A stretch of 32,000 bases of DNA, taken from NCBI GenBank assembly GCA_038736825.1, contig JAVYME010000006.1:1-32000 (forward strand). The letters are read 5' to 3'. Source of the stretch: Candidatus Iainarchaeum sp. (lineage in GTDB: Archaea > Iainarchaeota > Iainarchaeia > Iainarchaeales > DTGL01). The stretch's first letter is position 1. Each line of letters begins with the position of its first letter. Positions 6,101-27,770 of this stretch are shown here, one piece after another. A program made the translations under genes and the position numbers. The notes under the pieces were generated by a model, which had not been told where the DNA came from, made no database searches, and saw only the letters and a list, made by a program, of their open reading frames with translations.

Positions 6101-7992
6101 CTAACACCGTTCTGCCAGGTGAAAAATTTGATATCAACTCCTCTTGAATCTGTCCCAAAAACCTTTAATTGTCCAACTTCCACAGTATATTTTTCAAAAT
6201 CCCTTCCATACGCAATGCCTTTTATTTGATAAAAAGAAGTGCTTAACTCGTTGCCTTTCGTTCCAATCGGTTCAAGCAAGGCAACCGGTGGAGCGTTTGC
6301 AAGAGACAATGCTTTCTTTGCATTAATGAGTCCAAAGCCTTGAGCGGAAAAAGGAAGCTTTTTGTCCATGGCTGTATTCCTTATAGCCATTTTTATTTCA
6401 AGAGCCGACCAGTCTGGATTTTTTTCCTTTAAAAGCGCGGCAAGCCCTGAAACATATGCTGCGGAAACCGAAGTGCCGCTAACCGAATTATATCCTGGAA
6501 TGCTGCAAGCGCTTTCACCTGAAAAGATTGCGCTTGCCTGCCCGCACTCCAAAACACTAGCAGTCAAAGGCTTTGCAGCGCATTCACTGAATCCAGGCGC
6601 AATAACATCCGGTTTCATGATCACGCCTTCTTCCCATGAAACAATTCCAGTGCCTGAACCAGACATCAAAAAATCCGAACCGCCACAGTAAATCCCAGGG
6701 GTTTTTTTGGATCTATCGCTTCCACCGTAAGCTCCAACAGTTATTGCCTTTAATGAATTTCCGGGAGCACCAATTGAATTCGGAATTGTGTTTACCCTAT
6801 AATCTGGGTTATAAGGCCACAATTCAAGTGGACTGCTTTCAGCCTTTAAACCGTTGTTTCCAGCTGAAACCACTACTACAGAGCCTGCTTCCACTGCGCT
6901 GTCCACTGCCTTTGAAAGAGCTCCATAATGCTCTCCGTTTTTCGTGCTGTTCATGCTAATGTTTATAACATCAGCTCTATTGCCAAACTTGCACTCCATT
7001 GCGCTGTCTTTGCACAAATCTTGTGGGTCTATTGCACGCTTTAGTGCCTGAATTAAGTCGCTTTCAAAAGAGCCAGCTAGAAAACTCTCTTCACTCTTGC
7101 AATTCCAAGCTCTCAACGGAATGATTTCAGCTTCAGGGGCAACACCCCAAACTTCACCTTCATCCAATTTGTTGTTAAGGTTTGGGTCTTGTTTGGCTGT
7201 TGCAATTCCAGCAATTGCTGTTCCATGCCCAACCAAGTCCAGTGGTTGTTCAGTGGATCTAGGAAAGCTCATTATTGCAGTTCCAAGGCCACAACCCGGC
7301 GTGGTTTCTTTTAGTGCTTCAGAGCGAGTGCATCCGTCAACACCAGTTGTTATTTTTTTGCAGTTTCCTTTTTCGAATTCTTCGCTTGAGCATGATCCAA
7401 AGGCTGGGTGCGAGAAGTCTATGCCTGTGTCTATGAATGCTATTTTGACTCCTTTTCCCGTGTAAAAGCTAAGGGGTATTTGTATTCCTATATCTTCTAG
7501 TTGCACACAGCTTGGGCATTGAGTTGCGCTTGCTTGGATTATTGTGTTTGGGTAAACTGCTTGCACTTCTGGGAGTTGAGAGATTTTTGTTGCCTCTTCT
7601 TCTGATATTTTTATCGCTATTCCGTTGAACAAGATAGAGAATTTTGCGAAAATTTTTGAATTGCATTCTGTTGCAGTCAAGCCCAGCGTTGAACAGATTT
7701 TTTGAATTCCTTTTGTTTGTGCGTCGGATTCAATTCCGGTTCTTGCTGCAAGGCTCATTCCCCTTAATTCTATTCCTGTTTGTGCTAGCGCGCTTGATAG
7801 TGCACTCAGCACTGTGCTTGTTCCACCATGCCTTGCTGTTTGGCTTTGAAATCCAGTGATTGTTGTGTCAAGTGTAAGGTTGTATGCGGTGATTGTGCCG
7901 CTTTCCTTGAATTCCACTATCCAGCCGTTTTGCTCGGCAAAAGCCTGCGACAAGACTAGCAAAAAAAGCATGGCAAAGCAAGTTTTTTTCAT
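3169..7992 (-). CDS. Secreted subtilisin-like serine protease (peptidase S8) with ~1000-aa uncharacterised C-terminal extension
   Basis: Track ORF 3169..8001 starts at GTG. The ATG at 7992 gives MKKTCFAMLFLLVLSQAFA (signal peptide). Catalytic motifs in track numbering: Asp IAFIDTGID (D191), His VGHGTAIAG (H259), oxyanion SAGNNG (N382), Ser SGTSVSAAYVSG (S511). The S8 domain ends near aa 570. The remaining ~1040 aa have no motif I recognise and no C-terminal TM. Confidence 0.93.
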   Translation of the reverse strand: MKKTCFAMLFLLVLSQAFAEQNGWIVEFKESGTITAYNLTLDTTITGFQSQTARHGGTSTVLSALSSALAQTGIELRGMSLAARTGIESDAQTKGIQKICSTLGLTATECNSKIFAKFSILFNGIAIKISEEEATKISQLPEVQAVYPNTIIQASATQCPSCVQLEDIGIQIPLSFYTGKGVKIAFIDTGIDFSHPAFGSCSSEEFEKGNCKKITTGVDGCTRSEALKETTPGCGLGTAIMSFPRSTEQPLDLVGHGTAIAGIATAKQDPNLNNKLDEGEVWGVAPEAEIIPLRAWNCKSEESFLAGSFESDLIQALKRAIDPQDLCKDSAMECKFGNRADVINISMNSTKNGEHYGALSKAVDSAVEAGSVVVVSAGNNGLKAESSPLELWPYNPDYRVNTIPNSIGAPGNSLKAITVGAYGGSDRSKKTPGIYCGGSDFLMSGSGTGIVSWEEGVIMKPDVIAPGFSECAAKPLTASVLECGQASAIFSGESACSIPGYNSVSGTSVSAAYVSGLAALLKEKNPDWSALEIKMAIRNTAMDKKLPFSAQGFGLINAKKALSLANAPPVALLEPIGTKGNELSTSFYQIKGIAYGRDFEKYTVEVGQLKVFGTDSRGVDIKFFTWQNGVSWVLSFLSGTIGEHVFVGTPAGKLPIGQIAKAVRIAWDTAQSPWKEALNYVFRDVLGISSQLATASISLLVRFALSYETANASQDYYFPVQAFTLENDRTIQWNLVKESRTPAIGVLVEDFTPYKWLGPNEGEQFLKLTVYDRKGGKSVDFLPLNYRPSLVEKKGTGLNCQCEKTGEGAPEFVEQRNWLWAMNLRAENESKRVVDCTEKYCDAAQLYIFFAEMQAIAEKSLAEMSEKEKQFFYDSIANEKRTHEQTFLDLSRKEFIVLPAASDNNKLVFYSTEKAGWKNWLQKKYPYPTDKTGIPVIKPKESDPPSVKAGIEIQAKWMEADWKNCLEFSGEKPARSRKEFENPNCTLDRDWIEFLQAARQKALQGQPIGSTERVQESTALSVLEASVKKCFGEQYGLENIYVDYSSPCDTASAKYTEWKKGESALLKKLEILAGMKQTAMEARFTEDFYVSRGSWHAGDFAKNGGARLLSLPVFLENQEWIAEQSRNCNLASGNCYFEIAMQRFKISEEEVRNFFSFFEKHSFLQFGLSPETKLEEKEIEFVKKNSIAMNGWLWAEPLASSIEIKLVSDAISEDFKKDFKEFFASQLSDARINPENWNVILKEGNRFETGKYKLKTGFPFNIHSKDRIEIPAASHYIELSEKLSDKSNPFLFIPFDGELGLENGRQGYGARIEFPQYPEAKIYYTNQIPEIKTSQIFYEYNMEKNRVRPGKGPDNDNIARVRFAYSKAIDDIREGSVFSVSGDGKEFEMTLKHSIPVRIGFLAAPYLPAEGEPRKIAKIYYALAKNSTSEKFSLEDYGTKKGIFTFWDFQANMLGDTVSEQITDCLGVPYKTVAAKLEVPTKSIIDYWDVTGKALPSGNVVELPLLATIAFLPPDTKIVLECNSKEIFNLQAYMDSAGKPITERKWGGASYNLRRQPIELVPEQLKPLTLKEIAEGVESEKICANTKENGTDFSWNPVTLFGGIQAD

Positions 7993-7994
7993 TT

Positions 7995-8681
7995 TCAGCA
8001 CTTTTCCTTAAAGTATTTTATTGAGTTTTCCAAGAGCGCTATTTCTTCTTCTGCGTTTTTCCAGGGAAATTCCTCGCTTTTAAGGGAAATTGTTTCAGCT
8101 TCTGCTGGAAATTTTTCAATGAACTGTTTTGTTTTTTCATAAAACGCTTTAGCGGTTGCAGTCATTTTTTTTGCTGCCAACAAGAGTTTTTCGTATTCCA
8201 TGAATGTTTCACAGGTTGGTTTTTCATGCAATGTTTTTGCTTTTGCAAGCATTGTTTCATGCTCTTTTTTTGCAATTGCAAATTCAACAATTTCCAAATA
8301 AGCGCTTGCAAGCAAGGCAATTTTTTCATCTTTAACGGTTTTTTGTTTTTCCAGTGATTCAATTATTTGCCGGAGTTCCAAAGCATTCTTTTTTTCAAGC
8401 TCTGAAAATGCCTCGTGAAGCCTTTCAGCGCTCACTCCGTTTGCTTTCCAGGCTTGAGCCAAATCCGAGTATTTTTCAAGAAAGGCTTTTTCTTTTGAGG
8501 TTGGCGTTGGAGTTTCAATTCGTGGAAGTGTTTCCGTCGGGCTTTTGAATAAGATTAGTGCAGTCAAAAAAATTGCAAGTGCAATGCAAACTGCTATAAC
8601 AGCAATGCTCAAAGGTTTTAGTTTCCTTTTGCCCTTGGTGGTGAAAAGGAATGCCTTTGCTTCAGCAAAAGAGAAATTCAT
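7995..8681 (-). CDS. N-terminally membrane-anchored all-helical protein, tightly linked upstream partner of the protease
   Basis: ATG start with TATAAATA about 29 nt upstream. The TM segment is LSIAVIAVCIALAIFLTALILF. The rest is K/E/A-rich helical sequence. Its stop TGA (7997-7995) is 2 nt from the protease ATG (7992). Confidence 0.8.
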   Translation of the reverse strand: MNFSFAEAKAFLFTTKGKRKLKPLSIAVIAVCIALAIFLTALILFKSPTETLPRIETPTPTSKEKAFLEKYSDLAQAWKANGVSAERLHEAFSELEKKNALELRQIIESLEKQKTVKDEKIALLASAYLEIVEFAIAKKEHETMLAKAKTLHEKPTCETFMEYEKLLLAAKKMTATAKAFYEKTKQFIEKFPAEAETISLKSEEFPWKNAEEEIALLENSIKYFKEKC

Positions 8682-8975
8682 GTAATTGTTAAGTGTTGAA
8701 AGAAGTATTTATACTTGATGGTGGCTGTTGCCCTCTGGCTGAAAAAACTACCCTGGATAAAAGCTTTTAATCCATGGCGGTTTTTGCGGTTCTTCGCCTT
8801 TTGAAAGCATTTCCTTCCATTAACCAAGAAATGAAGTTATTGCTTGCATTTCTTGTAAATTTAAACCGGTCCGGCTGGCTTTCACTTAACCAGTAAGGAA
8901 ATTTTTCCTTTTTTTTTAATTCTTTTTTTCAAAAAAACCGGGATTGTCCTGAAGGACTGTTAATTGCCTGCGTGT

Positions 8976-10655
8976 TTATTGTTCTTTTTTTTCTTTTATC
9001 CTGATAATGGCAATTATGCAGGCTGCAATGATTGTTGCCAGCAATGGATTGGTTTCAGGGGTTTCAAGTTCTGGTGCTGGCATGCCAACAACTATGTTTT
9101 TTGTTTTCGGGCAATTAGTGCATTCTTCGCCTAAAATTGTTGCTTTCAAAGTGTAAATGCCTGGTTCTGGAAAGCCTTGCCTTGAAAAAACCAGGCTTTT
9201 TTCTTTGCAGGGAATGTTTTCGTGTGGAATGCTTGTGATTGCACTTCCGTTCTCGTGAAAGTATTCTATTCTTGCTTGTGCATCCTTGTTGCACGCAATT
9301 GTTATGGTTGTCGGCATTGTTGCATTTTCTGGGTTTGTGGCGTCAAATTTGGTTATTGTGGCTCTTTCAGTTACATTGATTGTTTTGTTTTTCGGGTTTG
9401 AAGAAGCGCCTGTATTGTCTGTTACTGTTAGCGATACAAGGAATTCTCCTTTTTTGGTGAAAACATGGGATGTTTTTGGATCGGTTTTTGTTTCAGTTGA
9501 ACCGTCTCCAAAATTCCAATTGTATTTTGCAATTGTTCCATCCGAATCACTGCTTCCAGAAGCATCAAATAAAACGGTTAGTGGAACAAGTCCTGAGTGC
9601 AAATTGGTTGTGAATTCCGCTTTAGGCTTGCAAGTGGCATTTCCGCCTATTGCTTGGCACCCATAAGGGCAAAGCACATCATTATGAATTTGGCTTGAAT
9701 TGGAATAACAAGAGCCTCCACTGCAACCCCTTTCAATGCAGTTTTTGCTTTGCCTTTTGCTGTTTCCATTGCAAGTGTAAAATGGCCCAAAGTTTGGGTC
9801 ACAAGTTGTGCCGGCATTGCAGTTGGCAGTCACACTCCAGCCATAGCAAGAGCCATTGTCACAGCAAGTGCCGGTTTCAACATTTTGTGCAGCATTGCAC
9901 CTGGAAGAGCTCCAGCAAACAGGGGTTGGAATTGGTGTTGGAGTTGGAATTGGAGTTGGTGGCGGGGTTATTGTTGGGTGAGGTGTTAGAGTTGGTGTTG
10001 GAGATTGTGGGGGGCAAGGCAGGCATTTGCCATTACTGCAACCACAAGGACAGGTTGCCACAAAAACTATATCACAATAAGTGGTTTGGTTCCAGAGATC
10101 GTTTCCCTTGCAAAAGGTTGAAAAATTGCAAAGTGTTGGAGTTGGTTTTGGTGTTGGCGGAGGGGTTGGCGGTTGAGTTGGTGTGGGAATTGGCGTTTGT
10201 ATTGGGGTTGGTGTGGGTGTGGGTGTTGGTGTTGGTGTTTGGCAGGCCAGGCATTGTCCGTTGCTGCAACCACAAGGACAGTTTTTCACAAAGTATTCGT
10301 CGCAGGACGAGTTTTTTTGCCATACATCTTTTCCCTTGCAAAAAGTTGAAGGAGTGCATTCCGGTTCCGGTTTTGTTTGGCATCTCCAATTTTCGCACTT
10401 GTAGTCATGACAGTCTAAGCAGCTCCCACAGGTGCTTGGCCTGCAATTGGAGCAAGAACCAAGGCAGTCATCGCATCCAGTGCAACCACACCACCAAAGA
10501 CAAATGCATGCTTCTTTGCATTGACAGCTTTCAGCTGTGCTTTGACAGTAGGGGCACCACCCAGTGCCTTTTATGCAGTTAGCTGCAAATCCTGGATTGA
10601 AAAGAAAAGCTAAAATTGTGAAAAGAGTCAAGATTGAAATTGATTTTTTTGCCAC
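8976..10655 (-). CDS. Cys-rich secreted surface protein with Pro/Thr linkers, PKD domain and C-terminal TM anchor
   Basis: Signal peptide MAKKSISILTLFTILAFLFNPGFA, with an apparent GTG start. A Cys-dense N-module follows. Two repeated modules are C..STFCKG.D.W......C...FV..CPCGCSNG.CL.C. The PKD signature is FDASGSSDSDGTIAKYNWNFGDGS. The C-terminus is NPLLATIIAACIIAIIRIKEKKEQ. Confidence 0.9.
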   Translation of the reverse strand: MAKKSISILTLFTILAFLFNPGFAANCIKGTGWCPYCQSTAESCQCKEACICLWWCGCTGCDDCLGSCSNCRPSTCGSCLDCHDYKCENWRCQTKPEPECTPSTFCKGKDVWQKNSSCDEYFVKNCPCGCSNGQCLACQTPTPTPTPTPTPIQTPIPTPTQPPTPPPTPKPTPTLCNFSTFCKGNDLWNQTTYCDIVFVATCPCGCSNGKCLPCPPQSPTPTLTPHPTITPPPTPIPTPTPIPTPVCWSSSRCNAAQNVETGTCCDNGSCYGWSVTANCNAGTTCDPNFGPFYTCNGNSKRQSKNCIERGCSGGSCYSNSSQIHNDVLCPYGCQAIGGNATCKPKAEFTTNLHSGLVPLTVLFDASGSSDSDGTIAKYNWNFGDGSTETKTDPKTSHVFTKKGEFLVSLTVTDNTGASSNPKNKTINVTERATITKFDATNPENATMPTTITIACNKDAQARIEYFHENGSAITSIPHENIPCKEKSLVFSRQGFPEPGIYTLKATILGEECTNCPKTKNIVVGMPAPELETPETNPLLATIIAACIIAIIRIKEKKEQ

Positions 10656-11249: not shown

Positions 11250-11388
11250 TTTTGCAGTGTTTTGCTTAAAGATTGCATTAAGTCCTGCCTGTTTTTCTGC
11301 CACGAATTAAAACTTTTTTTAAGCGGATTAAAATCAGGAATAATGGAAAGGATAATCCTGCACAGGCAAACGGCATTGAATTCAAGTT

Positions 11389-14386
11389 GCGTTAAAGCGT
11401 AACCTCGGGTTTTTAGTGTCAGTGGACTGAAAAGCTCGCCGAAGCTTGCTTCTTACATCTCTGACCTATCAAGCCGGTGTTATACCGACACCCTTGTCCC
11501 TAGCGCTTTGCACCGAAGTGCAAAGTGTTCGGGATTGGCTGTCTATTTTCAGGGAACGCTTCAAGCTTAGATGCTTTCAGCTTTTATCGTTTACAGCGTG
11601 GCTACCCGGCTTTGCCTTGTCAGACAACCGGCAAACCAGTGGCTGCGACTCCAGGTTCCTCTCGTACTAATGGAATCTTTCCCTCAGACAACCAGCACTT
11701 CCAACAGATAGTATCCAAACTGGCTCGCACCGTTCTCAACCCAACTAACGTAGGGCTTTAATGAGTTAACACCTCCACCCTTGGCTGCTTATGCACAGCC
11801 AGGATGCCCTGAGACGACGGCGAAGTATCAAACCGCGGGGTCGATGTGGACTCTCACCCGCGACGGATCCATTACCCCCAAGGTAAGTTCACTATCAGAC
11901 TAGGGCCCCTTCAATGGGCGCACTAGCGTTCACTAGACCGTGCTTTCGCAACAAGGTTTCTTGCTGTGTGAAACCCTGTAAAGCCTGCTTTTACTCTTAT
12001 ATTCAAAGGCGGATTTCTGACCCGCTTGAGCAGACCTTTGGATACCCCTGATATCTTTTCAGGGGTGTACCGCCCCAGTCCAACTGCCCGGCTAATGGTG
12101 TCCTTTTGCAAGTTAGCAAGACAGTTTTGTAGGGATGGTGTTACATTGTCGCATCCAGATTTCCTGACGAAAACCCTTCGACTGCTCCCATCTACGCTAT
12201 ACTTACAAAACCGGCTCACAGCATCAGCTTGCAGTAAACCTCTGTGGGGTCTTCTCTTCCCGTTGGAAGTCCGCGGCATGTTCACCGCGTATCGCGTTCA
12301 TCGGACTGAAGTCAGGGACAGTGGGGATCTCGTTGCTTCATTGGTGCAAGCCGGCATTAAACCGGCAAGGTATTACGCTACCATGAGAGCCTCAGAGTTA
12401 GGCCCGCTCTTTACCAGCGCTTAGTCCCCTTGAACGGGGTTTTCACGTACTGGCAGTGAGCAGAGGTCAGCCCCTATTCACACCCTTGCGGGCTTGCAGG
12501 GACCTGTGTTTTTACTAAACAGTCGGACCCCCCTTGCTATTGAAACCAGGCATTCGCATGCCTGGCACCCCTTGTACCGAAGATACAGGGCTAATTTGCC
12601 GAATTCCCTTGACTTCATTACTCCGTTACGCCTAAGCTTTTTCAGCTAGGGGCACCCCTCTCGGTTCTCGGTACGGTTATTCGAAATCCTTGCCGCAAAC
12701 CTTTTCACTGGCTCCAGGCCTCAGCCGAACCTTGCGGCTATTCCCATTTTTTGTCCTTTTCACACCATTACAGTTCTCCAAGGACTTATAATGGTTAAGG
12801 CCATCGACACTAGGCCTCAGCCTAGCCCGAAGCAACAGTTTGCAGCCATTCGTTGCCGAAAGCGTATTCGAATAGTACAGGAATATGAACCTGTTTCCCT
12901 TTCTCTTTCACCGTGTTACGGGAAAGATTAGGACCGACTGACCCTTAGCTAATGGTTAGCGCTAAGGAACCCTGGCCCTTTCGGCGGAAGGGATTCTCAC
13001 CCTTCAATCGTTATTACTTGCCCAAGGATCCATACATCCAGCGGATTCACTGGACATTGCTGCCCAGCTTTCACTCCACCGGATTACCCCCTTACTGGTT
13101 GATAACTGTTACAGTTATCCCCAAAGGTTTCGGCAGCCGGTTTTAGCCCAGATTATCTTTCGGGGCCTTTGTCCTAGGTAGGTGAGCTATTACGCACTCT
13201 TTAGAGGGTGGCTGCTTCTAAGCCAACCTTCCTACTGTTTAAGGGCAGAGACACCCTTTGTGAGTGACACTTAACCGGCATTTGTGGGCCTTAACCTTTG
13301 TCCGGGTTGTTCCCCTCCAAGACTAGCGGCTTACCCGCCAGCCCCCACTCCAGCCTTCTACGGCGATTGTTGCTTCGGAGTTTGAAAAGAAAGCCGGTCC
13401 TTTCGAACCAATACTTTCTACTCAGTATCTCTACACAACAATCAGCCTCTGGCCAGGCAATCCTTCGGGATTCTTCAGGGGGAGCCTGCAATCGCCAAGC
13501 GCGACTCGTATATCGCGCCTATTCCCAGGTCACCCGAGCAGATAGACTAGTACCGGTTGAAGTCCTCCACCTCTCGGAAGAGAGGCTTCGACTTGCCCAG
13601 GAATAGATCGCTTGGCTTCAGGTCTTGACCCAGTGACTGGGGCGCGAGAACACCCGCTCTCTCGCCGCATTTCGCGGTTGCAGAGCCTTCGGTTTCCCTT
13701 CGGCTGCTCCATTGACAGGATTAGCCTTGCCACTAGGACAAACTCCCTTGGTCGTGATTCTAGACGAACGGCGCAACCCTGGTCTGCAAGCTCGCTTGTT
13801 TTTTTGCAAAAACTTGCTTCGCTTGCTTCTACCCTTTTGAGCCGCGCCCGCCTGTCGCCATCTAGTTTCAAACGCTTTTCAGCCCCCGTTAGGGGTGCTT
13901 TTCAACCTTCCTTCACAGTACTAGTACGCTATCGGTCTCAACACGTATTTAGGGTTTGAAGTTAAAGACTCCATTCTTCGCGCGCAACATCCGGTGCACG
14001 CTACTCTTGAACTTGGCAATAATCCATTGCATTTCAGCTTACACGGCTTTCACGCTCTATGGCGCTCTGTTCCAAGAGACTTCTGCTTCAATGCTTTGGA
14101 TTTAACCAAGCCAACACCACATCCACCATACATTGCTGTACGGTATTCGGTTTGCCCTCTGCCGTTTTTTCTCGCTGATACTCACGGCATCTCAATTGAT
14201 TTCTTTTCCTGCGGTTACTAAGATGCTTCAATTCACCGCGTATGCCCTCCCTTTCGGGATGATTCGGGAATCCAGGGTTCTAAGACTGCATGCGTCTCGC
14301 CCTGGCTTATCGCAGCTTGCCACGCCCTTCTTCGACAGTTGAGCCTAGTTATCCCCTAGATGGCTTTTTGTTCAACGCTTTACGCA
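11389..14386 (-). rRNA. rrl: 23S rRNA (about 3.0 kb, no large insertion)
   Basis: The 5' domain (revcomp of 14290-14386) reads GCGUAAAGCG...AAGCCAUCUAGGGGAUAACUAGGCUCAACUGUCGAAGAAGGGCGUGGCAAGCUGCGAUAAGCC. The sarcin-ricin loop AGUACGAGAGGAAC is the revcomp of about 11657-11670. The 3' terminal CGCUUUAACGC (11389-11399) can pair with the 5' terminal GCGUAAAGCG (helix 1). Ends are +/-15 nt. Confidence 0.93.
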
Positions 14387-14613
14387 TTCCAGTTCAAAAA
14401 AAACCGGAATTCGTGAAGTCAATGCCATTAACCTGTGCAGGATCATCTTCCGTTAACATGAAAACTACTGTTATGCTTGAGTTAACAGAATCACTATTCC
14501 ATTCCAAAAAAGCTTGGAATGGTCATCATCAACAATGATGAATATAACAAAATCCCGCTTGGATTTTTTTTTTACAACTTTCTTTTCTTTTTTTGTGAAT
14601 AGAAAGCTGTTAT

Positions 14614-14685
14614 TGGACCCAGCGGGAATCGAACCCGCGGCCTCAGCCTTGCAAAGGCTGCGTCATACCGCTAGACCATGGGCCC
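14614..14685 (-). tRNA. tRNA-Ala (anticodon UGC) in the 16S-23S spacer
   Basis: The revcomp is GGGCCCAUGGUCUAGCGGUAUGACGCAGCCUUUGCAAGGCUGAGGCCGCGGGUUCGAUUCCCGCUGGGUCCA. The anticodon arm is CAGCC-UUUGCAA-GGCUG, the T arm is GCGGG-UUCGAUU-CCCGC, and the G3:U70 alanine identity pair is present. The discriminator is A. CCA is not encoded. Confidence 0.95.
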
Positions 14686-14751
14686 AGCATTGTAATATTC
14701 CGTTAGAGAATATTTTTATTTCCTTTCCACGGGTTCGCTTTTTTTTTGTTT

Positions 14752-14784
14752 GTTGTTCAAAGAGCCTTTCGGGCCAGTGCACTG
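14752..14784 (-). promoter_or_regulatory. 16S processing-stem, 3' (trailer) strand with BHB bulge
   Basis: The RNA reads CAGUGCACUGG-CCCG-AAA-GGCUCUUUGAACAAC. It pairs with the leader strand at 17130-17163 through 11-bp, 4-bp and 15-bp helices. Confidence 0.8.
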
Positions 14785-15457
14785 TTAGTGCTTTAAATTA
14801 AAGGAGGTGATCCGTCCGCAGGTTCCCCTACGGACACCTTGTTACAACTTAGCCCGTCTCGCAGGACTCAGAATCGACTTTTTCTTTTGAAAAAGCCTCA
14901 TCAAAACCCTACTCAACTGGCTTGATGGGCAGTGTGTGCAAGGCGCAGGGACGTATTCATCGCGCGATAGTGACACGCGATTACTGGGGATTCCAAGCAT
15001 TCACGAGGCAGGGTTTCAAGCCTCGATCTGGACCGAGACTGGCTTTAGGGGATTGCCTTGCCCTTTCGGGTTCGGAGCCCATTGTTCCAGCCAATGTATG
15101 CCGCGTGTAGCCCAAGGCATTCGGGCCATACAGATCTACCGTCGACCACTCCTTCCTCCTTGTTTCCAAGGCGGTCCCATTAGAGTGCTCATCCAAAACT
15201 GGATAGTGGCAACTAATGGCGTGGGTCTCGCTCGTTGCCTGAGTTAACAGGACGCTTCATAGTACGAGCTGACGATGACCATACAACACCTCTCAGCGTG
15301 TCAGGTAAGCCCTTCAGGTTGACCATCATTCTGCTGTCGGCCCTGGTGAGCTGTCTGGCGTTGAATCCAATTAAACCGCAGCATCCACCCCTTGTAGTGC
15401 GCCCCCGCCAATTCCATTAAGTTTCGGCCTTGCGACCATACTTCCCAGGCAGCGGAC

Positions 15458-16245
15458 TTAACGGTTTCCCTTCAGCACTCCGGTGTCAAATGAGACCGGA
15501 ACACTTAGTCCGCATCGTTTACGGCTAGGACTAACCGGGTATTTAGTGGAAAGATGGAACTTTGCAAGCCTTGCCCTTTTTGCAGGATGCAAGGGCTGTG
15601 CAATGCCGAGAAATTTCTTCAAGTTTTGCTTGCCGTAAATGTAAAGCTCAAACTCTTCTCTTTTGCCTCTTTTTCTCTGCAATTCGCTTGTTTTGATTCC
15701 TTTGCTTGAAAGGAATTTTTTCGCGAAATCCCAGAGCGGTTTTGAGGTGGTGGAGAAAGAGATTCTGGCTTGTTTTTTTCCAATGCTTGCCTCGGCGTCA
15801 AAGAGTCCCGCGAGATAAGCACCCTTATGTCCGTCAGACCATTTTGCAATGGAGGACGGGGGCGACAGGTGCTCCCTCACAGAGCCCTTTGGAACTTCAA
15901 GCACTTCTGTCAAATACTTGTATACAGCCTTGCTTTTTGTGTGACTGTAATAGGAATTCCTGTTCTTGTCATGGAATAGGTTTAATTTCACCCGAAAACC
16001 TTCAAAAACAATTTTTGCAATACCAAATGGTATTCCTTGTTTTTGTCGGTTATAAGGATTCTGCCGTAAGACGTGTTGCCGTCACCGTGCAATATGCCCA
16101 AAATCCTGCACAATTCTTTTGAAAACTGCGCTGGCAGTTTTACAATGAACTGCGAGTTTTTGTGCCTGAACCCTTTTCCAGTTTTCTGGATTTCAGGGTG
16201 TTTTTTCAGGAACGCATTCAATTTGCATTCCAAAACCTGTTCCAC
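15458..16245 (-). pseudogene. Double-motif LAGLIDADG homing endonuclease, interrupted by a frameshift (ORFs 15988..16245 and 15458..15991)
   Basis: Motif 1 is LCRILGILHGDGNTS in the 85-aa ORF. Motif 2 is GAYLAGLFDAEASIG in the 177-aa ORF. The break falls inside the first domain (..LQKLFLKVFG* / (V)KLNLFHDKNRNSYYSHTKSKAVYKYL). The stop and start overlap as GTGA. The last ~27 codons of the second ORF lie in 16S exon sequence. Confidence 0.8.
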
Positions 16246-16291
16246 AAATTAATTTGTGCCTGAAGTTCTTAAAAGTTCCCCTTTTCCATAT
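15541..16291 (-). mobile_element. Archaeal BHB-type rRNA intron carrying a LAGLIDADG homing endonuclease gene
   Basis: It splits the conserved GGAUUAG/AUACCC 790-loop sequence. The junctions fold as CCGG/CCGG, then a 4-bp UUAG/CUAA helix flanked by 3-nt bulges on opposite strands, then UGGAAA/UUUCCA. The length is 749 nt. A shared AU leaves a 2-nt boundary ambiguity (15541-16289 or 15543-16291). Confidence 0.85.
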
Positions 16292-17129
16292 CTAATCCGG
16301 GTCGCTCCCCTAGCTTTCATGCCTCACTGTCAGGCCAGTCCTGGTCAGGCGCCTTCGCTACCGGTGGTCTTCTCGGGATCTTAGCATTTCACCGCTACTC
16401 CGAGAATTCCCCTGACCTCTTCCTGCCTCGAGCTTCCTAGTTTCCCTTGCGCGCCAACCCGTTAAGCGGGCTGATTTCACAGGGGACTTTTGAAGCTAGC
16501 TACGCATGTTTTAAGCCCAATATTAGTGGGCACCACTTGTGGAGTACGTGTTACCGCGGCGGCTGGCACGTATCTTGCCCCCCACTTATTCGCCAAGTTG
16601 TCTGGGCTTGGCAAAAGCCAGCAGTGCTGGCACTGGGAATCCCCCTATCGCGCTTTCGCGCATTGTAGAGGTTTCGCGACTGCTGCACCCCGTAGGGCTA
16701 GGGACCTTGTCTCAGTTCCCTACTCCGGGCTCCCTCTTCCAAGGCCCGTACAGATCTGAGGCTTGGTGGGCAGTTACCCCGCCAACAACCTATTCTGCCG
16801 CAGGCTCGTCCTTGAGCGCAACTTGCAGCATGAAGCAAGCGCTTTTTGGCAACAAGACATTCCAGTGCTTGTTGCCTATGGCACATTATCCCCAGTTTCC
16901 CGGGATTAATGCCTCTCAAGGGTAGATTGCCCACGTGTTACTGAGCCGTTCGCCAGAGGCCCTCGTGGCTGGCCTCTAAGACTTGCATGTCTTAATCGGA
17001 TTCCCATAGCAGTGCCCTCCAGCAGGATCAGCTGGAATCGGAAGAAACTCAATGGAATTTTTTTCCAGAAAACCTGAGCACTTTTTTTAATGCTTTCAAG
17101 TTTTCTTTGTTATGTTGAAAGCACTTTTT

Positions 17130-17163
17130 CAGTGCACTGGTTTCCCGTGGCTCTTCAAACAAC
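17130..17163 (-). promoter_or_regulatory. 16S processing-stem, 5' (leader) strand with BHB bulge
   Basis: The RNA reads GUUGUUUGAAGAGCC-A-CGGG-AAA-CCAGUGCACUG and is complementary to the trailer strand 14752-14784. Two AAA bulges on opposite strands are separated by the 4-bp CGGG/CCCG helix. Confidence 0.8.
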
Positions 17164-19649: not shown

Positions 19650-21126
19650 TTATGTTTTTTGTTGCTGGTTTTTTTTGAGTTCTTTTATTTCTGCTTGGAT
19701 TGCAAGGGTTTGTTTTTTGAATTCTTCTTCTGTGATGCGTCTTTTATAATAGTCTATTTGGAGGTCTTTAAGCATGCGGTTTCTTTTAGCAATCTCAAAA
19801 CGCTGTTGTTCGCTTAACAGGTTTTGTTGCTTGAAATGGTTAGCCAGCCGGTTTAACAAGAATAAGGCAATAATTATGAATGCCAATAGCGCGCCTACTG
19901 CAATTATTGGCGCAGTAAAATCTGCTATTTGAGTTATTATTTTTTGTTGTCCAGGAATGCACTTGTTTTCTTCTATACTACAATTGTATCCTTCAGGGCA
20001 ACCGCATTCTTGGCAGTTTTCAACCCATTTTTGGTTCAAGCAATAATATGGCTTGTAGGGACCGCAACCGGTTTGAGTGCATTGCGCTCCAACCAAAGGC
20101 TGTTGTGGAGCAATCGTTGTGGCTGGTTGCATTATTGTTTGGGTTGCAGTTGGCTGGATTGCAGTGGGAGTTGCTGTAATGGTTTGTGTTGAAGCAATGG
20201 TTTGAGTTGGAGTGGTTGGCTTTACGCATTTTCCGTTTGAGCACACTAGGTTTGCAGCGCAATTGCCACACAAAACCTGGTTTCCGCAACCATCATCCCA
20301 ATAATCGCATTCTTTGCCCAATTGCAAGCAAGACTTGGGAGTGCACTGTGGTGTCCAAATTGCAGTCGGTGTTGGCGTTGGAGTTTGTGTTATTGTGGGT
20401 GTTGTTGTGGGATTTGTAGTGCTCGCTGTGCTGGTGAAATTATTGAAATCCAGGATTTTACCTGATGCTTTTTGTTCGCCTTTTTCAGCAAGGGCTTTAA
20501 AATAGTATTTCGAATTTGCTTCAATTGGAATTTCTTTAGAAAAAGAACTCCTCCCTGCACTAACTGTTTTCTTTTCCGTATGCTTGAGCTCAGTTGTTCC
20601 CTCCTTCCAGTATTCAAACCAAACAGAACAACCATTTGGACAATCGAATTCACCCCGCAAGTTTGCTTTTGAAGAAGAAATGTCAATGGCTTTCAATGTT
20701 TTGACAAAAATAGGGATAACCCACTTACAATAATAATATTTTGAGCACTCTTCTTGGTTACTCAAAGAAGAACAAGCCCTTGGAGTGCCTTGGCATTTGG
20801 ATTCTAAATAACAGCCTTGTTGTTTGCTGCAATCGTTTGCTGAAAAAAAACCAGCAAGGCTCGAGTAGTCCAGTACAGCCAGTTCTGTTGTCCCACGAGC
20901 ACCATTTCTGCTCAACACATTCGACTGTATTATTAAGGTCTTCGCATGGCGTTGGATTGCCAACACAGTCTAGACCCCACATGCAATCAAATTTTAAACA
21001 CTCGGATTGGTTTGTAATTGTATAACAATTTGGTGGCTCAGATTTTTGAATGCATTCTGCTTGCGCGCTTGCAGTGAAAAAAGCAATTACAACAAACACC
21101 AGTGAAAGCAAAAAGCCTTTTTTCAT
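19650..21126 (-). pseudogene. Cys-rich secreted surface protein (Pro/Thr linkers, TM anchor, coiled-coil tail) interrupted by a frameshift at an A8/T8 run
   Basis: ORF 20758..21126 supplies the signal peptide MKKGFLLSLVFVVIAFFTASAQA and two C..L.N...C.....C.W repeats. ORF 19650..20966 supplies a third repeat (CSSLSNQEECSKYYYCKW) and the rest of the protein. The frames swap across the homopolymer at 20843-20850. Removing one base joins ..EPCWFF-SANDCSKQQGC... Confidence 0.75.
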
Positions 21127-21275
21127 TTCAAAATAGAAACGCTTTTTTTGAATAAAAACCTTTCCTGGGAAAAATTTTGCATTTTTTTAAAGGCAAGGCT
21201 GAAAAAAAACACAGTGAACTCAATAAAGTTCTCTGGATAATTTCAGCAAAACCGGTTTGTGCTAATTCCAAGCAA

Positions 21276-21707
21276 TTATTTTTTCTTTTGCTCTGGTTCA
21301 GCTTTTTTCCATGCAAGGAAAACAAAAAAGCAAAGCAAGAGCACTCCCAACACAATCCTGCCAAGGATTTCACTGACTGCAACTGAAAAAGACAGTGCTC
21401 CAAAAACAAAAAGCAACAGTCCTCCAAGCAAAAAACCCATTTGGATTACGGGTTGCGCTTTCAAGAACTTGCTTGCAAGCAGGATAGTGGCAAGCCCTGC
21501 AATAAAAATTACAATTGCCTGGTATGCTCTAACCTCTTCCTGTCGGGCATAGCAGGCTTGCATTTGCACTGAATCCTGCAATTCATAGCATTCTGGAAGT
21601 GAAATAATGGCTGACACTGTCATTGTAACAATCAAAATGAAAAGCACTGCAATTACTAGGGCAAAAACAACCCCTGTGAACCACAAAGCGCTTTCCTTCA
21701 AATCCAT
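21276..21707 (-). CDS. Hypothetical 4-TM membrane protein
   Basis: ATG start with TTTAAATA about 27 nt upstream. Four hydrophobic segments. The C-terminus is KKAEPEQKKK. Confidence 0.75.
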   Translation of the reverse strand: MDLKESALWFTGVVFALVIAVLFILIVTMTVSAIISLPECYELQDSVQMQACYARQEEVRAYQAIVIFIAGLATILLASKFLKAQPVIQMGFLLGGLLLFVFGALSFSVAVSEILGRIVLGVLLLCFFVFLAWKKAEPEQKKK

Positions 21708-21799
21708 GTTCTAAAATATGCTTTTGCCCTATTTAAACCTTTGCCTTCGTTTTTTTTTCGCAAAACCTTAAATATAACTTATTCAATTGATAAATAAGC

Positions 21800-24700
21800 A
21801 TGCAATTGTTGTCTTTCCACAAAAAAAACCCTTTGCTTTTTTCACTGCTTTTATTTCTTTTTTTTGAAATTCCTGTTTTTGCAGCCAATCCTCCAGGCGA
21901 TTGGAGCATGTACTGGTGGGAAAACGGTCAGCTCAAAAGATGGAATTTGGACACAGCGACAACCACTATTGTTGAAGGCGCTGTCAAGTCAGGCGAAACC
22001 ACTCTTTTCATGAATCCTGACACAGGCGAACTCCAAATGATGACTCCGGAAACCCACGGAGCAGTGTTCGTAAAAGAAGAAGACAAAGACGCAATGACCG
22101 CAGAATACTATAAGGCACTAGAGGCGCACTATAAAGAGGAAGTAGACCAAGGACAAAAGGATTTTGCAGTTTGGACTGGTTCAGACGGAAAAACCTATGC
22201 TTACTCAAAGGGAGACTCATCGCCCAAAGAAGTGGAGTTAAAAGAAAGCGGGTATTTTGAGAAAGACGGGAAATACTATAAAGTGAATCCTGACACTAAA
22301 AAGGTTTATTCTGTTAGTGAAGAGGAATTCTTTGTTCATGGTACTAAAGAAGAATTTTGGGCTGTGAGTGAAGGCGATGAAGTTTTTTTGCTTAAGCGCG
22401 GTGATATGGAAGGAGAAGTTGAAAAGTATTCTGATGGGTGGCAAAGAACGGATGGAACTTATTTTTGGACTGGCAGTGAGAATGATCCAATTTTTTATCG
22501 AGTAAGCCTAGATGGTAAAACAGTTGAAAAAATTGGAGTTGAAGAATACGTTGGTTTGTCGCCTGATTTAAGTCTAGAACAAAAGGCTTTTTTCAAAGAC
22601 GCGCTTTTGTCTATGGCTTACGAATTAGTCGGTACCCCCAAGCAAGCTAAATTGGAGTATTTTTGCAAACTGTGTTTTGGAGAAGATACTGCTGAAGAGA
22701 GTTCTTATCTTTTGGATAGCATGACTAGTAATAACGTAGAGGGTTTGAATCTTACAGTTTTAGATAATTTAAGTTATGTTGATAGTGGAAAGGGAATATT
22801 GTGTGGCCTTAACGGGATTTGCTATCCATACAATCCTGTTGGAGAGGCAAATTCACAACCAGTTGGTAGGATAGTGAAAGTTGGCAGTCAATATGTGTAT
22901 GTTAGTGACAATGATAGCCAGCAGTATAAAGAGCAGCATGGAACGCAGTTAAGTGCCCTAGCAACACAAGCTGAATTAAGTGCAAGTGACAGAGTGGTTG
23001 TTGAAAAGCAAGCTTCAGGTGGCGCATCACCAAGTGATAGTAAAATAGGAGACCAAGATTTAACAGGCGTTGCATCTGGTTGCAGTGGTTTTGGTTGTAG
23101 TGGGGGGGATATAGGGGAAGAGCAGCAACCTGGTCTTGAAAGTTGCGCTACAGCGCTTTCTTGTTCTCATTATTATGCTCAAAATGTTTGCGGTTATAAT
23201 TTGGATAATGGTTGTGGTGGCACTATTTCTTGTGTTTCCTGTCCGACTGGTTTTGTTTGTAGGAATGGTTCTTGTGCTTGCACTCCTAAAACCGCTTGTT
23301 CTTTGCAAAGCAAGTGCGGTGAAGAGGATAATGGTTGTGGTGGTAAAATTTTTTGTGGTTCTTGTCCTGCTGGCTTGCAGTGTGACTTGCAATACAGGGA
23401 GTGCGTTCCAGAAAAGGAAAAAACTTATTTGGATTTGAGTGAAATAAGTGTTTTTGCTTATTCCAATTATGCAGTGCTTTCTTGGAATACTTCTGTTCCG
23501 TCTGATTCCATTGTTTTTCTTGGCAAAACGCCAGCACTTGGATTGCAGCAAAATGTTTCTTTTGCCACTAAAACCCATTCTCTTTTGTTGGAGGGTTTGC
23601 AGCCAGACTTAGTTTATTATTATAAAGTGCGGGTTGTTGCTGGCAGTGAATCTAGGGAAAGCTCTGGTTCCTTTAAAACGCTCAAGGTTGGCGCTGACAC
23701 TGGACCATTGAAGGTGTTAATGGTTTCAGTTGACCCGCCTGGAAGGGCTGAATACGAGGGTTATGCTTTTTCTTTTACTGCTTTAACCAATTCTTTGAAT
23801 CCTTCAGAGCTTGAATTTGAATGGGATTTTGGTGATGGTTTTGTTTCAAAGAAAGCAGGCTATGTTGTTTACCATTCATATTATGGTTTGACTGAAAAGG
23901 AAAAAGATTTCAATGTAAGGGTGATTGCAAGGGATAAAAACGGTTTTAGTGCTGAAAGCAGTTTGACTGTCAAGGTTTTAAAAGCGGTTTTCAAGCCAGT
24001 TGTTTTGTCGCCAAGCCAGTTTGAATTGTTGTCAAAAAAAGGCAAGCTGGCTTTTTCAATTGTTTTTTTGGATGAACAGGAAAAAATGATTCCTTGCAAA
24101 AAAATAGTCTTAAAGGCTATTTTTGCAGGGCAAAGCATTGAAATGAAGTGCGATGACGGCAATCTTTTCAGTGGCTCTGTTTTGGGTTGGCATGGCTTGG
24201 ATGAACTGGAATTGCTGGCAATTTATGCAAGCTATACTTTGGGTGAAAGGACTTATTTTGTTAAAACAAGGGCGCCAGTTTATTTGGCTCCAGCCAGGAT
24301 TTCTGTAAGTGACATTTTCAGGCAAAAAAAATATTTTTTGAATGATTCCCTTGGAAAAGCCAAAGCCAGGTTTTTGATTGAAAAAATAATGCTGGTTTTT
24401 CCCCAAAACCTAAAGGCACAGCTTGTTTCAAGCAATTGGTCAAAGGATGTAAACATTGAAAGACAGGAATACGATTACATTCTCTCTTTTGACCATGTTG
24501 TAAGTGAAACCGATTTATTGGAGGGCTTAAAGCTGAAATTGGAGGGCAGGGATTCGCATGGAAACATTGTTGCAGAACTAATAGAATTGCCTCTTGAAAA
24601 AAGCAATCCAGAGCTAAGAATTGAATTGATTGAACCAATAGAGGGCAGTAGTGGTTTTGCTTTTGGGCAAAGGCTTAGGGTTAGAGCCAAAGCAATTCAT

Positions 24701-25693
24701 AAAAGCCCTTCCCTTAAAAACAAAGCCTTGTTTTTGGAATGCGGGCGCCTTGATCTTTTTACTGGAATGGAGTTTGATTCAACCAAAAAAGAATATTTTT
24801 CTGAAATATTGCTGCCATTGCCTGGTTTTGGTAATGCAACAATTTTGTGCAGTGTTCACGCTTACGGTTTTGAGGGCGAAAGGCAAGTGGAAAGCGTTGC
24901 CCACTTCACAGTAAATCTTTCAGGCAACCTTGGAATAGAATTTGTTTTGCCATCACAAGGCAATTTCAAGGTTTTTGGTGGGCGCGTGGGACAATTAAGG
25001 GTTAAATTGTTGCAAGAGAACGGCAAACCCTTTGAAGGACTGGATGTCAATGCAGTTTTAGTGGTTGACGGCAAAACAATGGAGAAAACCTTAAAGTTTG
25101 ATTCTTGGAGTGGAGTGCACTATGCAGACCTTGATTCACCCCTTGAAGCAGGCCAGCATTCTCTGGCTGTTTCGTTATCCCAGCCATTCCAGGGAAACAA
25201 TGAAATTTTGACAGTGATTGAAGAGGATGTTTTCGCTGGCTTTTTGCTTTCAAGCTTGGTTTTGCTAATTGTTGTTGGCTTGCTTGTTTGGTTTTTTTGG
25301 TTTTTTTCCAGAAATGCTTTGGCTGAAAGAAAGGCGTTGTTGGCTGAAAAGCAAAAGCTTTTGGGTTTAAGGAAAAAATACAAGTTTGAGTTTTTCAAAA
25401 GGCATATAAGTGAAAAGGAATTCAGAGAGCGCTCGAAGGCAATCGACAAGTCCTTGGAATTGGTTTCTGGAATGCTAAGGCATGGCGCATGGGTTCGCGT
25501 TGGATTAATGAAAACAATTTATCGAACAAATGATATCAAAAAACTGCCTTTGAAAGCGCAAGCGGAAGCGCTTTGCATAAGGCTTGCTGGCAAAAGCGGA
25601 GAGTTTTCCAGAATAGAGGTTGCCAAAACGCTTTTAAGCGAAGGCTATCAAGAAAAAACCATAAACGAGGTATTGGACAGGCTTTTTAAGTGA
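21800..25693 (+). CDS. Giant surface protein (1297 aa): signal peptide, Cys-rich modules, FN3-like and PKD domains, Ig-like repeats, TM helix, about 125-aa cytoplasmic tail
   Basis: Signal peptide LLFSLLLFLFFEIPVFA. Cys modules are CGYNLDNGCGGTISCVSCPTGFVCRNGSCAC and CGEEDNGCGGKIFCGSCPAGLQCD. The FN3-like segment is AVLSWNTSVPSDSIVFLGK...LQPDLVYYYKVRV. The PKD signature is LEFEWDFGDG. The TM segment is FAGFLLSSLVLLIVVGLLVWFFWFF. TTAAATATAA lies about 27 nt upstream of the ATG. Confidence 0.92.
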   Translation: MQLLSFHKKNPLLFSLLLFLFFEIPVFAANPPGDWSMYWWENGQLKRWNLDTATTTIVEGAVKSGETTLFMNPDTGELQMMTPETHGAVFVKEEDKDAMTAEYYKALEAHYKEEVDQGQKDFAVWTGSDGKTYAYSKGDSSPKEVELKESGYFEKDGKYYKVNPDTKKVYSVSEEEFFVHGTKEEFWAVSEGDEVFLLKRGDMEGEVEKYSDGWQRTDGTYFWTGSENDPIFYRVSLDGKTVEKIGVEEYVGLSPDLSLEQKAFFKDALLSMAYELVGTPKQAKLEYFCKLCFGEDTAEESSYLLDSMTSNNVEGLNLTVLDNLSYVDSGKGILCGLNGICYPYNPVGEANSQPVGRIVKVGSQYVYVSDNDSQQYKEQHGTQLSALATQAELSASDRVVVEKQASGGASPSDSKIGDQDLTGVASGCSGFGCSGGDIGEEQQPGLESCATALSCSHYYAQNVCGYNLDNGCGGTISCVSCPTGFVCRNGSCACTPKTACSLQSKCGEEDNGCGGKIFCGSCPAGLQCDLQYRECVPEKEKTYLDLSEISVFAYSNYAVLSWNTSVPSDSIVFLGKTPALGLQQNVSFATKTHSLLLEGLQPDLVYYYKVRVVAGSESRESSGSFKTLKVGADTGPLKVLMVSVDPPGRAEYEGYAFSFTALTNSLNPSELEFEWDFGDGFVSKKAGYVVYHSYYGLTEKEKDFNVRVIARDKNGFSAESSLTVKVLKAVFKPVVLSPSQFELLSKKGKLAFSIVFLDEQEKMIPCKKIVLKAIFAGQSIEMKCDDGNLFSGSVLGWHGLDELELLAIYASYTLGERTYFVKTRAPVYLAPARISVSDIFRQKKYFLNDSLGKAKARFLIEKIMLVFPQNLKAQLVSSNWSKDVNIERQEYDYILSFDHVVSETDLLEGLKLKLEGRDSHGNIVAELIELPLEKSNPELRIELIEPIEGSSGFAFGQRLRVRAKAIHKSPSLKNKALFLECGRLDLFTGMEFDSTKKEYFSEILLPLPGFGNATILCSVHAYGFEGERQVESVAHFTVNLSGNLGIEFVLPSQGNFKVFGGRVGQLRVKLLQENGKPFEGLDVNAVLVVDGKTMEKTLKFDSWSGVHYADLDSPLEAGQHSLAVSLSQPFQGNNEILTVIEEDVFAGFLLSSLVLLIVVGLLVWFFWFFSRNALAERKALLAEKQKLLGLRKKYKFEFFKRHISEKEFRERSKAIDKSLELVSGMLRHGAWVRVGLMKTIYRTNDIKKLPLKAQAEALCIRLAGKSGEFSRIEVAKTLLSEGYQEKTINEVLDRLFK

Positions 25694-25742
25694 AAAAAGC
25701 CAATCCCGTTTTTTTTTAATCCTTTCACTCTTATATATTGGC

Positions 25743-26693: not shown

Positions 26694-26819
26694 AAAAAAG
26701 CGTGGTTTTTCAATTCAAGAGCGAAAAAATTCACGACAAAGGCATTGTTGAAGAAAAACTTGACACAATCCAGCCCAATATTAAAAACGATAAAAGCAAA
26801 AACAAAACAACAAACACTA

Positions 26820-27332: not shown

Positions 27333-27517
27333 AAACTGACACTCAAACTCCCCACAAAAATTCTCAAACTCTTGTTTTAGAGCTTTTTAAAGCCAATACT
27401 CTAAGGGCAATAGAGGTATTTAATTCTTTTTATTGCTTGAAATTTGCAGAAAAAAAGTTTTTTGCAATACTTTGCACTGAATTGGGGTTAAAAGAATATA
27501 AGTGTGCAAAAGCTGGC

Positions 27518-27562
27518 AAAAAAAACAGGGTTTTTAGTTTTGAGCGGAATGTCAACCCTGTT
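27518..27562 (-). terminator. Hairpin plus oligo-U terminator downstream of the small basic ORF
   Basis: The minus strand reads AACAGGGUU-(21-nt loop)-AACCCUGUU followed directly by a U run (plus-strand A8 at 27518-27525). It starts 15 nt after the stop at 27577. Confidence 0.55.
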
Positions 27563-27576
27563 TAATTTTTGAGCCT

Positions 27577-27708: not shown

Positions 27709-27770
27709 AAAATCCCCAAAAACAATATTGCTTTCAATAAATTCGCTGAAACAAATTTATAAACATTGCG

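Follow-up and report, generated by a model that had tools for sequence, protein, structure and literature searches.

What interrupts the 16S rRNA gene of this archaeon, and how could a working 16S rRNA still be made from it? The gene lies on the minus strand of a 32,000-nucleotide (nt) stretch of DNA (positions 1 to 32,000 of contig JAVYME010000006.1, assembly GCA_038736825.1, Candidatus Iainarchaeum sp.; this whole stretch is called the window hereafter) and is about 750 nt too long, as a preliminary description made from the sequence alone had noticed. That description proposed an intron framed by a bulge-helix-bulge (BHB), the motif recognised by the archaeal splicing endonuclease (defined in PMC7714728 and PMC5829648). 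By combining covariance-model alignment, RNA folding and a comparison with related loci, we arrived at the reading that the insert is, very probably, a mobile-type archaeal rRNA intron of the BHB class, situated between U793 and A794, of which the own endonuclease gene has decayed and which would be excised by the tRNA-splicing endonuclease EndA.

The position of the insert follows from the Rfam model SSU_rRNA_archaea (RF01959), which covers the gene end to end (model positions 1-1478). Alignment of 15380-16440 to the archaeal small-subunit (SSU) covariance model bears out a single insert, which is about 750 nt long and separates ...CCGGAUUAGAUA from CCGGUUAGUCC, within the 790 loop. In conventional Escherichia coli numbering, in which primer 806R spans 787-806, this is between U793 and A794; a raw count on the 1541-nt E. 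coli rrs copy puts the site at 792/793. Together with the cut rule derived from the intron family below, the gene is divided as follows:

14802..17038, minus strand: interrupted archaeal 16S rRNA gene, 2237 nt, 1488 nt when spliced (Rfam RF01959, 1311.9 bits)
16290..17038, minus strand: exon 1, 749 nt, ending ...CCGGAUUAGAU (U793), from the covariance-model alignment and the cut rule
15541..16289, minus strand: BHB intron, 749 nt, from the covariance-model alignment, the minimum free energy fold and the cut rule
14802..15540, minus strand: exon 2, 739 nt, starting ACCCGGUUAGUCC (A794), from the covariance-model alignment and the cut rule

Removal of the intron by this rule leaves a 1488-nt rRNA carrying the invariant GGAUUAGAUACCC. 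The excess length, the 749-nt intron and the restoration of the canonical sequence had therefore been described correctly, while a gene of 2238 nt becomes 2237 nt in Rfam and an rRNA of 1489 nt becomes 1488 nt.

A gene of this length might also hold an expansion segment that is retained in the mature rRNA, or be a dead rRNA gene copy. Yet the insert splits the invariant 790-loop sequence, the exons form a complete and well-conserved 16S (at the score given above) in an intact 16S-tRNA(Ala)-23S operon, and the insert, which carries the nuclease gene of a mobile element, is bounded by a splicing motif that is conserved in 42 introns from several phyla. We consider a retained segment or a dead copy extremely improbable.

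The splicing motif itself is recovered by folding. The minimum free energy (MFE) structure of 806 nt spanning the intron (15515 to 16320, unconstrained) consists of GG, A, UUAG, the bulge AUA and UGGAAA on one side and UUUCCA, CUAA, the bulge AUA and CC on the other, with z = -9.3 relative to shuffles; it returns the structure that had been drawn by hand in the preliminary description, and an 84-nt mini-substrate gives the same BHB fold. The central helix of 4 base pairs (bp) is formed by U788-G791 of exon 1 and the final intron nucleotides, with 3-nt bulges on opposite strands either side of it. It is flanked on one side by a long helix joining the intron ends and on the other by helix 24 of the 16S rRNA, which in the MFE structure is shifted in register by one relative to the CCGG/CCGG pairing. 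The parts of the motif are:

16289..16291, minus strand: 5' splice-site bulge AUA, unpaired in the MFE folds, cut between 16290 and 16289, after bulge nucleotide 2
16292..16295, minus strand: exon strand of the central helix, UUAG (U788-G791, 790 loop), paired with 15543-15546 in the MFE structure
15543..15546, minus strand: intron strand of the central helix, CUAA, of which UAA is the endonuclease stop codon in most relatives
15540..15542, minus strand: 3' splice-site bulge AUA, cut between 15541 and 15540, opposite the unpaired exon base A787 (16296)
16271..16288, minus strand: 5' strand of the inner helix, UGGAAA, an unpaired A and GGGGAACUU(UU), from the MFE structure and compensatory changes
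15547..15563, minus strand: 3' strand of the inner helix, AAAGUUCC, AUC and UUUCCA, overlapping the C-terminal codons of the endonuclease
16297..16300, minus strand: exon 1 strand of the outer helix, CCGG (helix 24, positions 783-786), paired with 15535-15538
15535..15538, minus strand: exon 2 strand of the outer helix, CCGG (positions 796-799), from the pair count over the family

Using the repaired open reading frame (ORF) of the intron as a query, we found 30 homologues, and on every homologue contig examined the endonuclease gene lies within an archaeal 16S gene about 2240 nt long. A further 52 loci came from scans of metagenome contigs and of contigs from one genome per species, and junctions were extracted from all loci containing both intron ends. 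From 58 related loci came 41 further distinct introns at the identical site, making 42 with the window copy; they measure 544-818 nt and all lie at the same exon position. By record title, their hosts are metagenome-assembled genomes (MAGs) of Micrarchaeota, Iainarchaeum, Aenigmatarchaeota, Woesearchaeota and Nanoarchaeia, together with one MAG labelled Promethearchaeota, and their 16S exons are only 65-89% identical to those of the window.

Throughout this family the junctions keep the same architecture. The 5' bulge is AUA or AUU in 42/42 introns, the UUAG of the central helix pairs in all of them with CUAA, or through G-U pairs with CUGA or CUAG, and the 3' bulge is always NNA followed by CCC, its third base (A794) being invariant and its first two being AU, UU, AC, AA or AG. 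Each of the 41 distinct junction sequences has both bulges 3 nt long. When these sequences are aligned without gaps over 65 columns, standard pairs occupy 92.1% of the cells, compared to 70.8% in column shuffles (n=500, of which 0/500 reach 92.1%) and 34-54% in slid registers, in which the 3' partner was moved 1-3 columns along. Pairing reaches 100% of the cells in the central helix (41 sequences) and 95% in the outer helix 24, with 2/4 of its pairs covarying, and in the inner helix 8/8 tested pairs change on both sides in a compensatory manner (pair 22/43, for example, is AU in 13 sequences, CG in 9, GC in 8, UA in 5 and UG in 2). Pairing above the level of the shuffles, combined with this covariation, indicates that the BHB structure is real and under selection.

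The comparison also fixes the cut positions. As AUA is repeated at both junctions, four equivalent cut pairs are possible in the window alone; across the family, however, a cut after nucleotide 2 of both bulges, which the preliminary description had favoured, is the only position pair that restores GGAUUAGAUACCC in all 42 introns, and in 6/42 (those combining the 5' bulge AUU with a 3' bulge AAA or ACA) no other pair does so. EndA, in work attributed to Thompson and Daniels and to Xue, Calvin and Li in 2006, is said to cut BHB bulges at just this place, after the second nucleotide. A 5-bp register of the central helix (A787-U), possible in three relatives with a UUA 3' bulge, was rejected, as the product would lose A794.

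Several of the related loci, numbered L001 and onwards, show peculiarities of their own. In the Promethearchaeota-labelled MAG (L007:251-2101) the 16S scores best against the bacterial SSU model and only about 280 nt align upstream of the intron (window exon-1 positions 467-749); its 5' part looks truncated or divergent, and its taxonomic label and the completeness of the gene look uncertain. In L009, L013, L016, L020 and L028 the match of window exon 2 by BLAST is displaced downstream of its expected position by several hundred to about 2000 nt, and these five 16S genes accordingly seem to contain additional large insertions downstream of the 793 intron. The 16S of L005 holds, next to a member of the BHB family (about 2948-3701), an Rfam group I intron near its 3' end (4392-5133, 58.9 bits) that encodes a second LAGLIDADG ORF (4555-5109) and looks like an occupant of the SSU/1498 site of Nawrocki et al. 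2018.

The latter intron brings up the question whether the window insert is itself a self-splicing group I or group II intron with a homing endonuclease. Group I introns with LAGLIDADG genes do occur in DPANN rRNA genes (PMC6125680), one accompanies a family member in L005, and eukaryotes have a known group I site, S788, only 5 nt upstream. Nevertheless, no match to Intron_gpI (RF00028) or to a group II Rfam model was obtained at E<=1 with permissive filters in 15380-16440, whereas the same model library detects the L005 group I intron, which serves as positive control. Moreover, the ORF leaves 44 non-coding nt (upstream of it), which is too little room for a ribozyme core, and the conserved, covarying structure is a BHB. 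We therefore rejected a group I or II intron, the probability of which is vanishingly small, in agreement with what the preliminary description had stated.

Approximately 94% of the intron is taken up by a gene for a double-motif LAGLIDADG homing endonuclease, which in the window is broken by two 1-nt deletions; the preliminary description had been silent on this gene, on its frameshifts and on the wide DPANN spread of the intron family. The pieces and lesions are:

15988..16245, minus strand: endonuclease fragment 1, 85 codons, with a GTG start and the first motif LGILHGDGN, ending at a premature TGA
15541..15991, minus strand: endonuclease fragment 2, in the -1 frame, with the second motif YLAGLFDAEA, its stop codon lost
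15990..15994, minus strand: first 1-nt deletion, TTCG-GGTGA compared to TTCGCGGTA in L001 in the DNA alignment, creating the premature TGA
15561..15564, minus strand: second 1-nt deletion, GC-AAAG compared to GCAAAAG in L001 in the DNA alignment, in an A run

Together, both fragments match Pfam PF14528 LAGLIDADG_3 (6.8e-16). The family comparison included 22 intact homologues, about 233 amino acids (aa) in length, with which the repaired protein is colinear; the best homologue, itself intact, is 234 aa long and 76% identical. The repaired protein also retains all family-invariant residues; G54, D55, G56, D150 and E152, read in the repaired translation only, are invariant across 23 sequences. 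Compared with solved structures, the family profile finds the PI-PfuI intein endonuclease (4.8e-13), PDB entry 2dch, an archaeal 16S-intron endonuclease that we take to be I-Tsp061I (1.4e-6), and, weakly, I-DmoI (0.0026).

The second deletion removes the usual ...H-UAA ending of the family, in which the stop is the UAA of the central-helix CUAA, and by destroying this stop it makes the ORF read on into exon 2. The ORF of fragment 2 (177 codons, ORF span 15458-15991) accordingly ends at 15458. Instead of one intact ORF the window thus has ORFs of 85 and 177 codons, that is, a pseudogene of the LAGLIDADG family, and the ORF calls within the 16S gene, including the one running into exon 2, are to be read as this homing endonuclease pseudogene and not as a cellular gene. 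Based on the two deletions, on the GTG start codon where relatives aligned at the DNA level have ATG, on the one long ORF kept by all but one of the other 41 introns and on the uninterrupted ORFs of 1610 and 1297 codons (4.8 kb and 3.9 kb) elsewhere in the window, the lesions read as real decay of the endonuclease gene. With that gene decayed by two deletions and the loss of its stop codon, the window intron is probably immobile.

It could be objected that the endonuclease is still functional and the intron still mobile, the frameshifts being recoded or arising from errors in assembly or sequencing; this concerns the state of the ORF only. Both deletions fall in short homopolymer runs, (C)GG and AAA(A), where sequencing error is conceivable and speaks against decay, and the repaired translation has both LAGLIDADG motifs and every family-invariant residue intact, in a family of which nearly all members retain one long ORF. 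On the other hand, two independent 1-nt deletions within about 700 nt would have to be erroneous in a gene that also starts with GTG, in a window whose long reading frames named above are unbroken, and the first shift site lacks a slippery heptamer. Furthermore, the decay of homing endonuclease genes after their fixation is said by Goddard and Burt, and by Burt and Koufopanou in 2004 (the latter cited by PMC4496867), to be an expected part of their life cycle, which likewise counts against a functional gene. We judge a functional endonuclease unlikely. Programmed frameshifting at the first lesion was rejected, given the missing heptamer and the presence of the second, independent deletion. The intron length of 749 nt equals 2 mod 3, and if the intron were circular, fragment 2 read across the junction would come back into the frame of fragment 1, with a stop (UAA) 6 nt ahead of the GTG of fragment 1; this frame match, with 1 chance in 3, is probably an arithmetic coincidence.

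For this BHB intron with its decayed endonuclease gene we propose the following mechanism. Within the pre-rRNA, CUAA at the intron 3' end would pair with UUAG, the exon sequence in the 790 loop, the intron ends would form the long helix and helix 24 would close the opposite side, presenting two 3-nt bulges, 4 bp apart, to EndA. This enzyme would cut past the second nucleotide of each bulge, after which an RtcB-type ligase would join the exons to GGAUUAGAU-ACCC (predicted spliced junction GGAUUAGAU/ACCCGG, in longer form GGAUUAGAU/ACCCGGUUAG) and would probably circularise the intron, with its 3' end ...CCACUAAAU joined to its 5' end AUGGAAAAGG. Processing of archaeal rRNA by EndA and ligase is established (PMC7714728, PMC5829648), and so are RtcB-type ligation following EndA and the circularisation of introns (PMC7714728, PMC3326292). 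As to its origin, homing by means of its LAGLIDADG endonuclease may have brought the intron into the strongly conserved site GGATTAGAT^ACCC (the intron-less target being CCGGATTAGATACCCGGTTAGTCC) and have spread it among lineages. Homing into a conserved site would explain the single position in hosts with such divergent 16S exons, and the presence of the same site under all the host labels listed above is an indirect sign of it. Once the nuclease had decayed, selection would act only on the splicing motif, and the intron would be kept only because the BHB must function for ribosome production.

Excision need not imply ligation: the insert might be cut out at the BHB without re-ligation of the exons, leaving a mature 16S rRNA in two pieces, of about 749 and 739 nt, kept together within the ribosome. 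Broken rRNAs are known elsewhere among organisms, and the sequence says nothing on ligation. This would, however, place the break inside the universally conserved 790 loop. In addition, 42/42 introns keep the exact nucleotides needed to rebuild that loop by ligation, and in every archaeal case studied a ligase joins the EndA products, with circularisation of rRNA and tRNA introns (PMC7714728, PMC3326292). A fragmented 16S rRNA is therefore, in our view, very unlikely.

Some points weigh against excision of a BHB intron by EndA as outlined here. Opposite the 3' bulge, the exon base A787, itself invariant, has no partner, and this side can be drawn as an internal loop of 1x3 or 1x4 or as an A-C mismatch beside a 3-nt bulge. 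Compared with the strict hBHBh' form, the inner helix is continuous and the outer helix is paired in the 95% of cells given above, but A787 stays unpaired; the window motif is a mildly relaxed BHB. The fold of the preliminary description is upheld by the MFE structure, the mini-substrate and the covariation in 41 sequences, whereas the term canonical, which it had used, goes slightly too far. Strict alpha4 and alpha'2 EndA enzymes are reported to need hBHBh' (PMC7714728, PMC5829648); the EndAs of DPANN archaea are reported to be diverse, frequently with loops linked to broader specificity (PMC5829648). A gene search of the 32-kb window found neither endA nor rtcB, nor any other RNA-processing gene. 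Finally, splicing, ligation, the action of EndA and ligase in vivo, circularisation and past homing are inferred steps.

The flanks of the 16S gene were checked for an independent sign of EndA action on the pre-rRNA. A canonical BHB occurs in most archaeal 16S processing stems; in the fold of the gene flanks of the window it is not present. The flanking sequences (17118-17140 with 14774-14794) pair into a processing stem in which a 4x2 internal loop (AAAA/AA) separates 11 bp from 8 bp of helix (z = -6.0). Downstream of the 16S gene the archaeal rRNA operon continues on the minus strand and is intact for 16S, tRNA(Ala) and 23S:

14613-14686, minus strand: tRNA-Ala(UGC), part of the archaeal rRNA operon
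11393-14382, minus strand: 23S rRNA of the same operon, 2990 nt compared to a model of 2987 positions

A 5S rRNA gene is absent after the 23S (11250-11392) and anywhere in the 32-kb window, and it seems to be unlinked from the operon. Among the fetched loci, the best matches to the window 16S are 87-89% identical (metagenome contigs L001/L022), and over exon 1 the identity with the 16S of an Iainarchaeum MAG is 82%. Judged by this 16S similarity, the host is a DPANN archaeon with Iainarchaeum and Micrarchaeota MAGs as its nearest named relatives. The window has a G+C content of about 41% overall, and the operon is surrounded (371-10655 and 19650-31156) by genes for very large proteins that have Pro/Thr-rich linkers and are predicted to be secreted or anchored in the membrane. 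Among them are an S8 subtilase of 1610 aa, proteins with PKD domains (559 and 1297 aa), an fn3 protein and a number of ORFs without family match; a UbiA-family prenyltransferase is also encoded. Such a gene content is typical of DPANN genomes.

An insertion at this site has consequences for amplicon surveys, as the preliminary description had pointed out, in substance rightly. Both common versions of 806R, as well as Arch806R, have 3 mismatches on genomic DNA, including the penultimate 3' base, compared to 1 on the spliced sequence; for 785F these numbers are 6 and 2 and for an 805R-type primer 5 and 1, while 515F matches the window 16S perfectly. The intron 3' end ACUAAAU (15541-15546 region) resembles the exon 1 end AUUAGAU (16289-16295 region), by which likeness 806R still matches genomic DNA at 17/20 positions over the boundary of intron and exon 2, and a 515F-806R product, if any, would be about 749 bp too long. 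DNA amplicons with primers across 785-806 (806R, 785F/805R, Arch806R) are accordingly expected to fail or to be about 750 bp in excess in these lineages, which adds to the known blind spots for DPANN archaea. The consequence is real, but the problem is already familiar, the same warning having been published for Thermoproteales in 2015 (PMC4496867).

Regarding novelty, the 793 insertion site is absent from the literature searched, in which we met no description of an archaeal 16S intron that occupies position 793 or lies elsewhere in the 790 loop; as most subscription journals lay outside its coverage, this is weak evidence. The kind of intron is long known and well understood, the intron sequences are public and some of their ORFs are already annotated as homing endonucleases. 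Tentatively, and with somewhat more doubt than confidence, we suggest that the 793 introns constitute an uncatalogued mobile BHB lineage across Micrarchaeota, Iainarchaeota, Aenigmatarchaeota, Woesearchaeota/Nanoarchaeota and perhaps Asgard archaea, with a motif built half from the invariant exon UUAG, a stop codon normally placed in the central helix, and removal of the V4 reverse-primer site from every gene that it enters. If so, this lineage would be one systematic reason why 515F-806R surveys under-detect DPANN archaea, and the window copy would represent a late stage of the cycle, in which the nuclease has decayed and the BHB is retained. In practice, annotation of the 16S gene as two exons is called for in the window organism and in dozens of DPANN MAGs. 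The 42 distinct copies with their strong covariation also provide a clean comparative set, showing how a BHB is built partly from invariant exon sequence, and the window copy is a case of a splicing signal that outlives its own endonuclease. None of this is mechanistically surprising, and knowledge of how archaeal introns work is unchanged.

The classic archaeal rRNA intron, that of I-DmoI in the 23S gene of Desulfurococcus mobilis, is a protein-spliced BHB intron that is reported to circularise and has a stable stem between its ends. Like the window intron it encodes a monomeric, two-motif LAGLIDADG endonuclease; it differs in its 23S instead of 16S location, in its merely weak similarity to the family profile (E=0.0026) and in being active, whereas the window copy is frameshifted. 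Closer in host gene are the crenarchaeal 16S introns of Pyrobaculum, Thermoproteus, Caldivirga and Vulcanisaeta, which are likewise framed by a BHB, measure about 700 nt or more, carry a LAGLIDADG gene or its remnants and interrupt 'universal' primers (PMC4496867). The 2dch endonuclease from such an intron is a detectable (E=1.4e-6) but only distant sequence relative of the window family. Jay and Inskeep catalogued in 2015 13 such 16S loci, mostly in Thermoproteales (374, 548, 722, 781, 803, 901, 908, 919, 978, 1093, 1205, 1213 and 1391; PMC4496867). The 793 site is not among them, the nearest being 781 and 803, and no catalogued locus is listed as interrupting Ab779F, Ab789F and Arc806R together (PMC4496867), as a 793 insert would do by our own reckoning of the primer spans. 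Moreover, the catalogued hosts are thermophilic Thermoproteales, while those of the 793 introns are mesophile-type DPANN archaea.

In these same DPANN lineages, the accessible portion of Nawrocki, Jones and Eddy 2018 (PMC6125680) notes BHB introns beside group I introns in rRNA genes. Its catalogue covers group I introns only, and in that portion of text and supplement the BHB introns come without a site list. One of its source contigs, MNVE01000016.1, carries a family member (L014), and L005 has the arrangement reported there, in which a BHB intron is accompanied by a group I intron close to the 3' end of the 16S gene. The cultivated Micrarchaeota ARM-1 and ARMAN-2 (Sakai et al., PMC8784108) are DPANN archaea that also have a 16S insertion, but this unrelated insertion lies at position 1093 and encodes a hypothetical protein without LAGLIDADG match; its splicing was left open by the authors. 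Finally, the rRNA inserts of bacteria of the candidate phyla radiation (PMC11270868; Brown et al. cited there) resemble the 793 introns in bearing LAGLIDADG genes, in their ultrasmall symbiont hosts and in defeating amplicon primers; they differ in that their bacterial hosts have no EndA and in being group I-like, group II-like or unclassified rather than framed by a BHB (PMC11270868).

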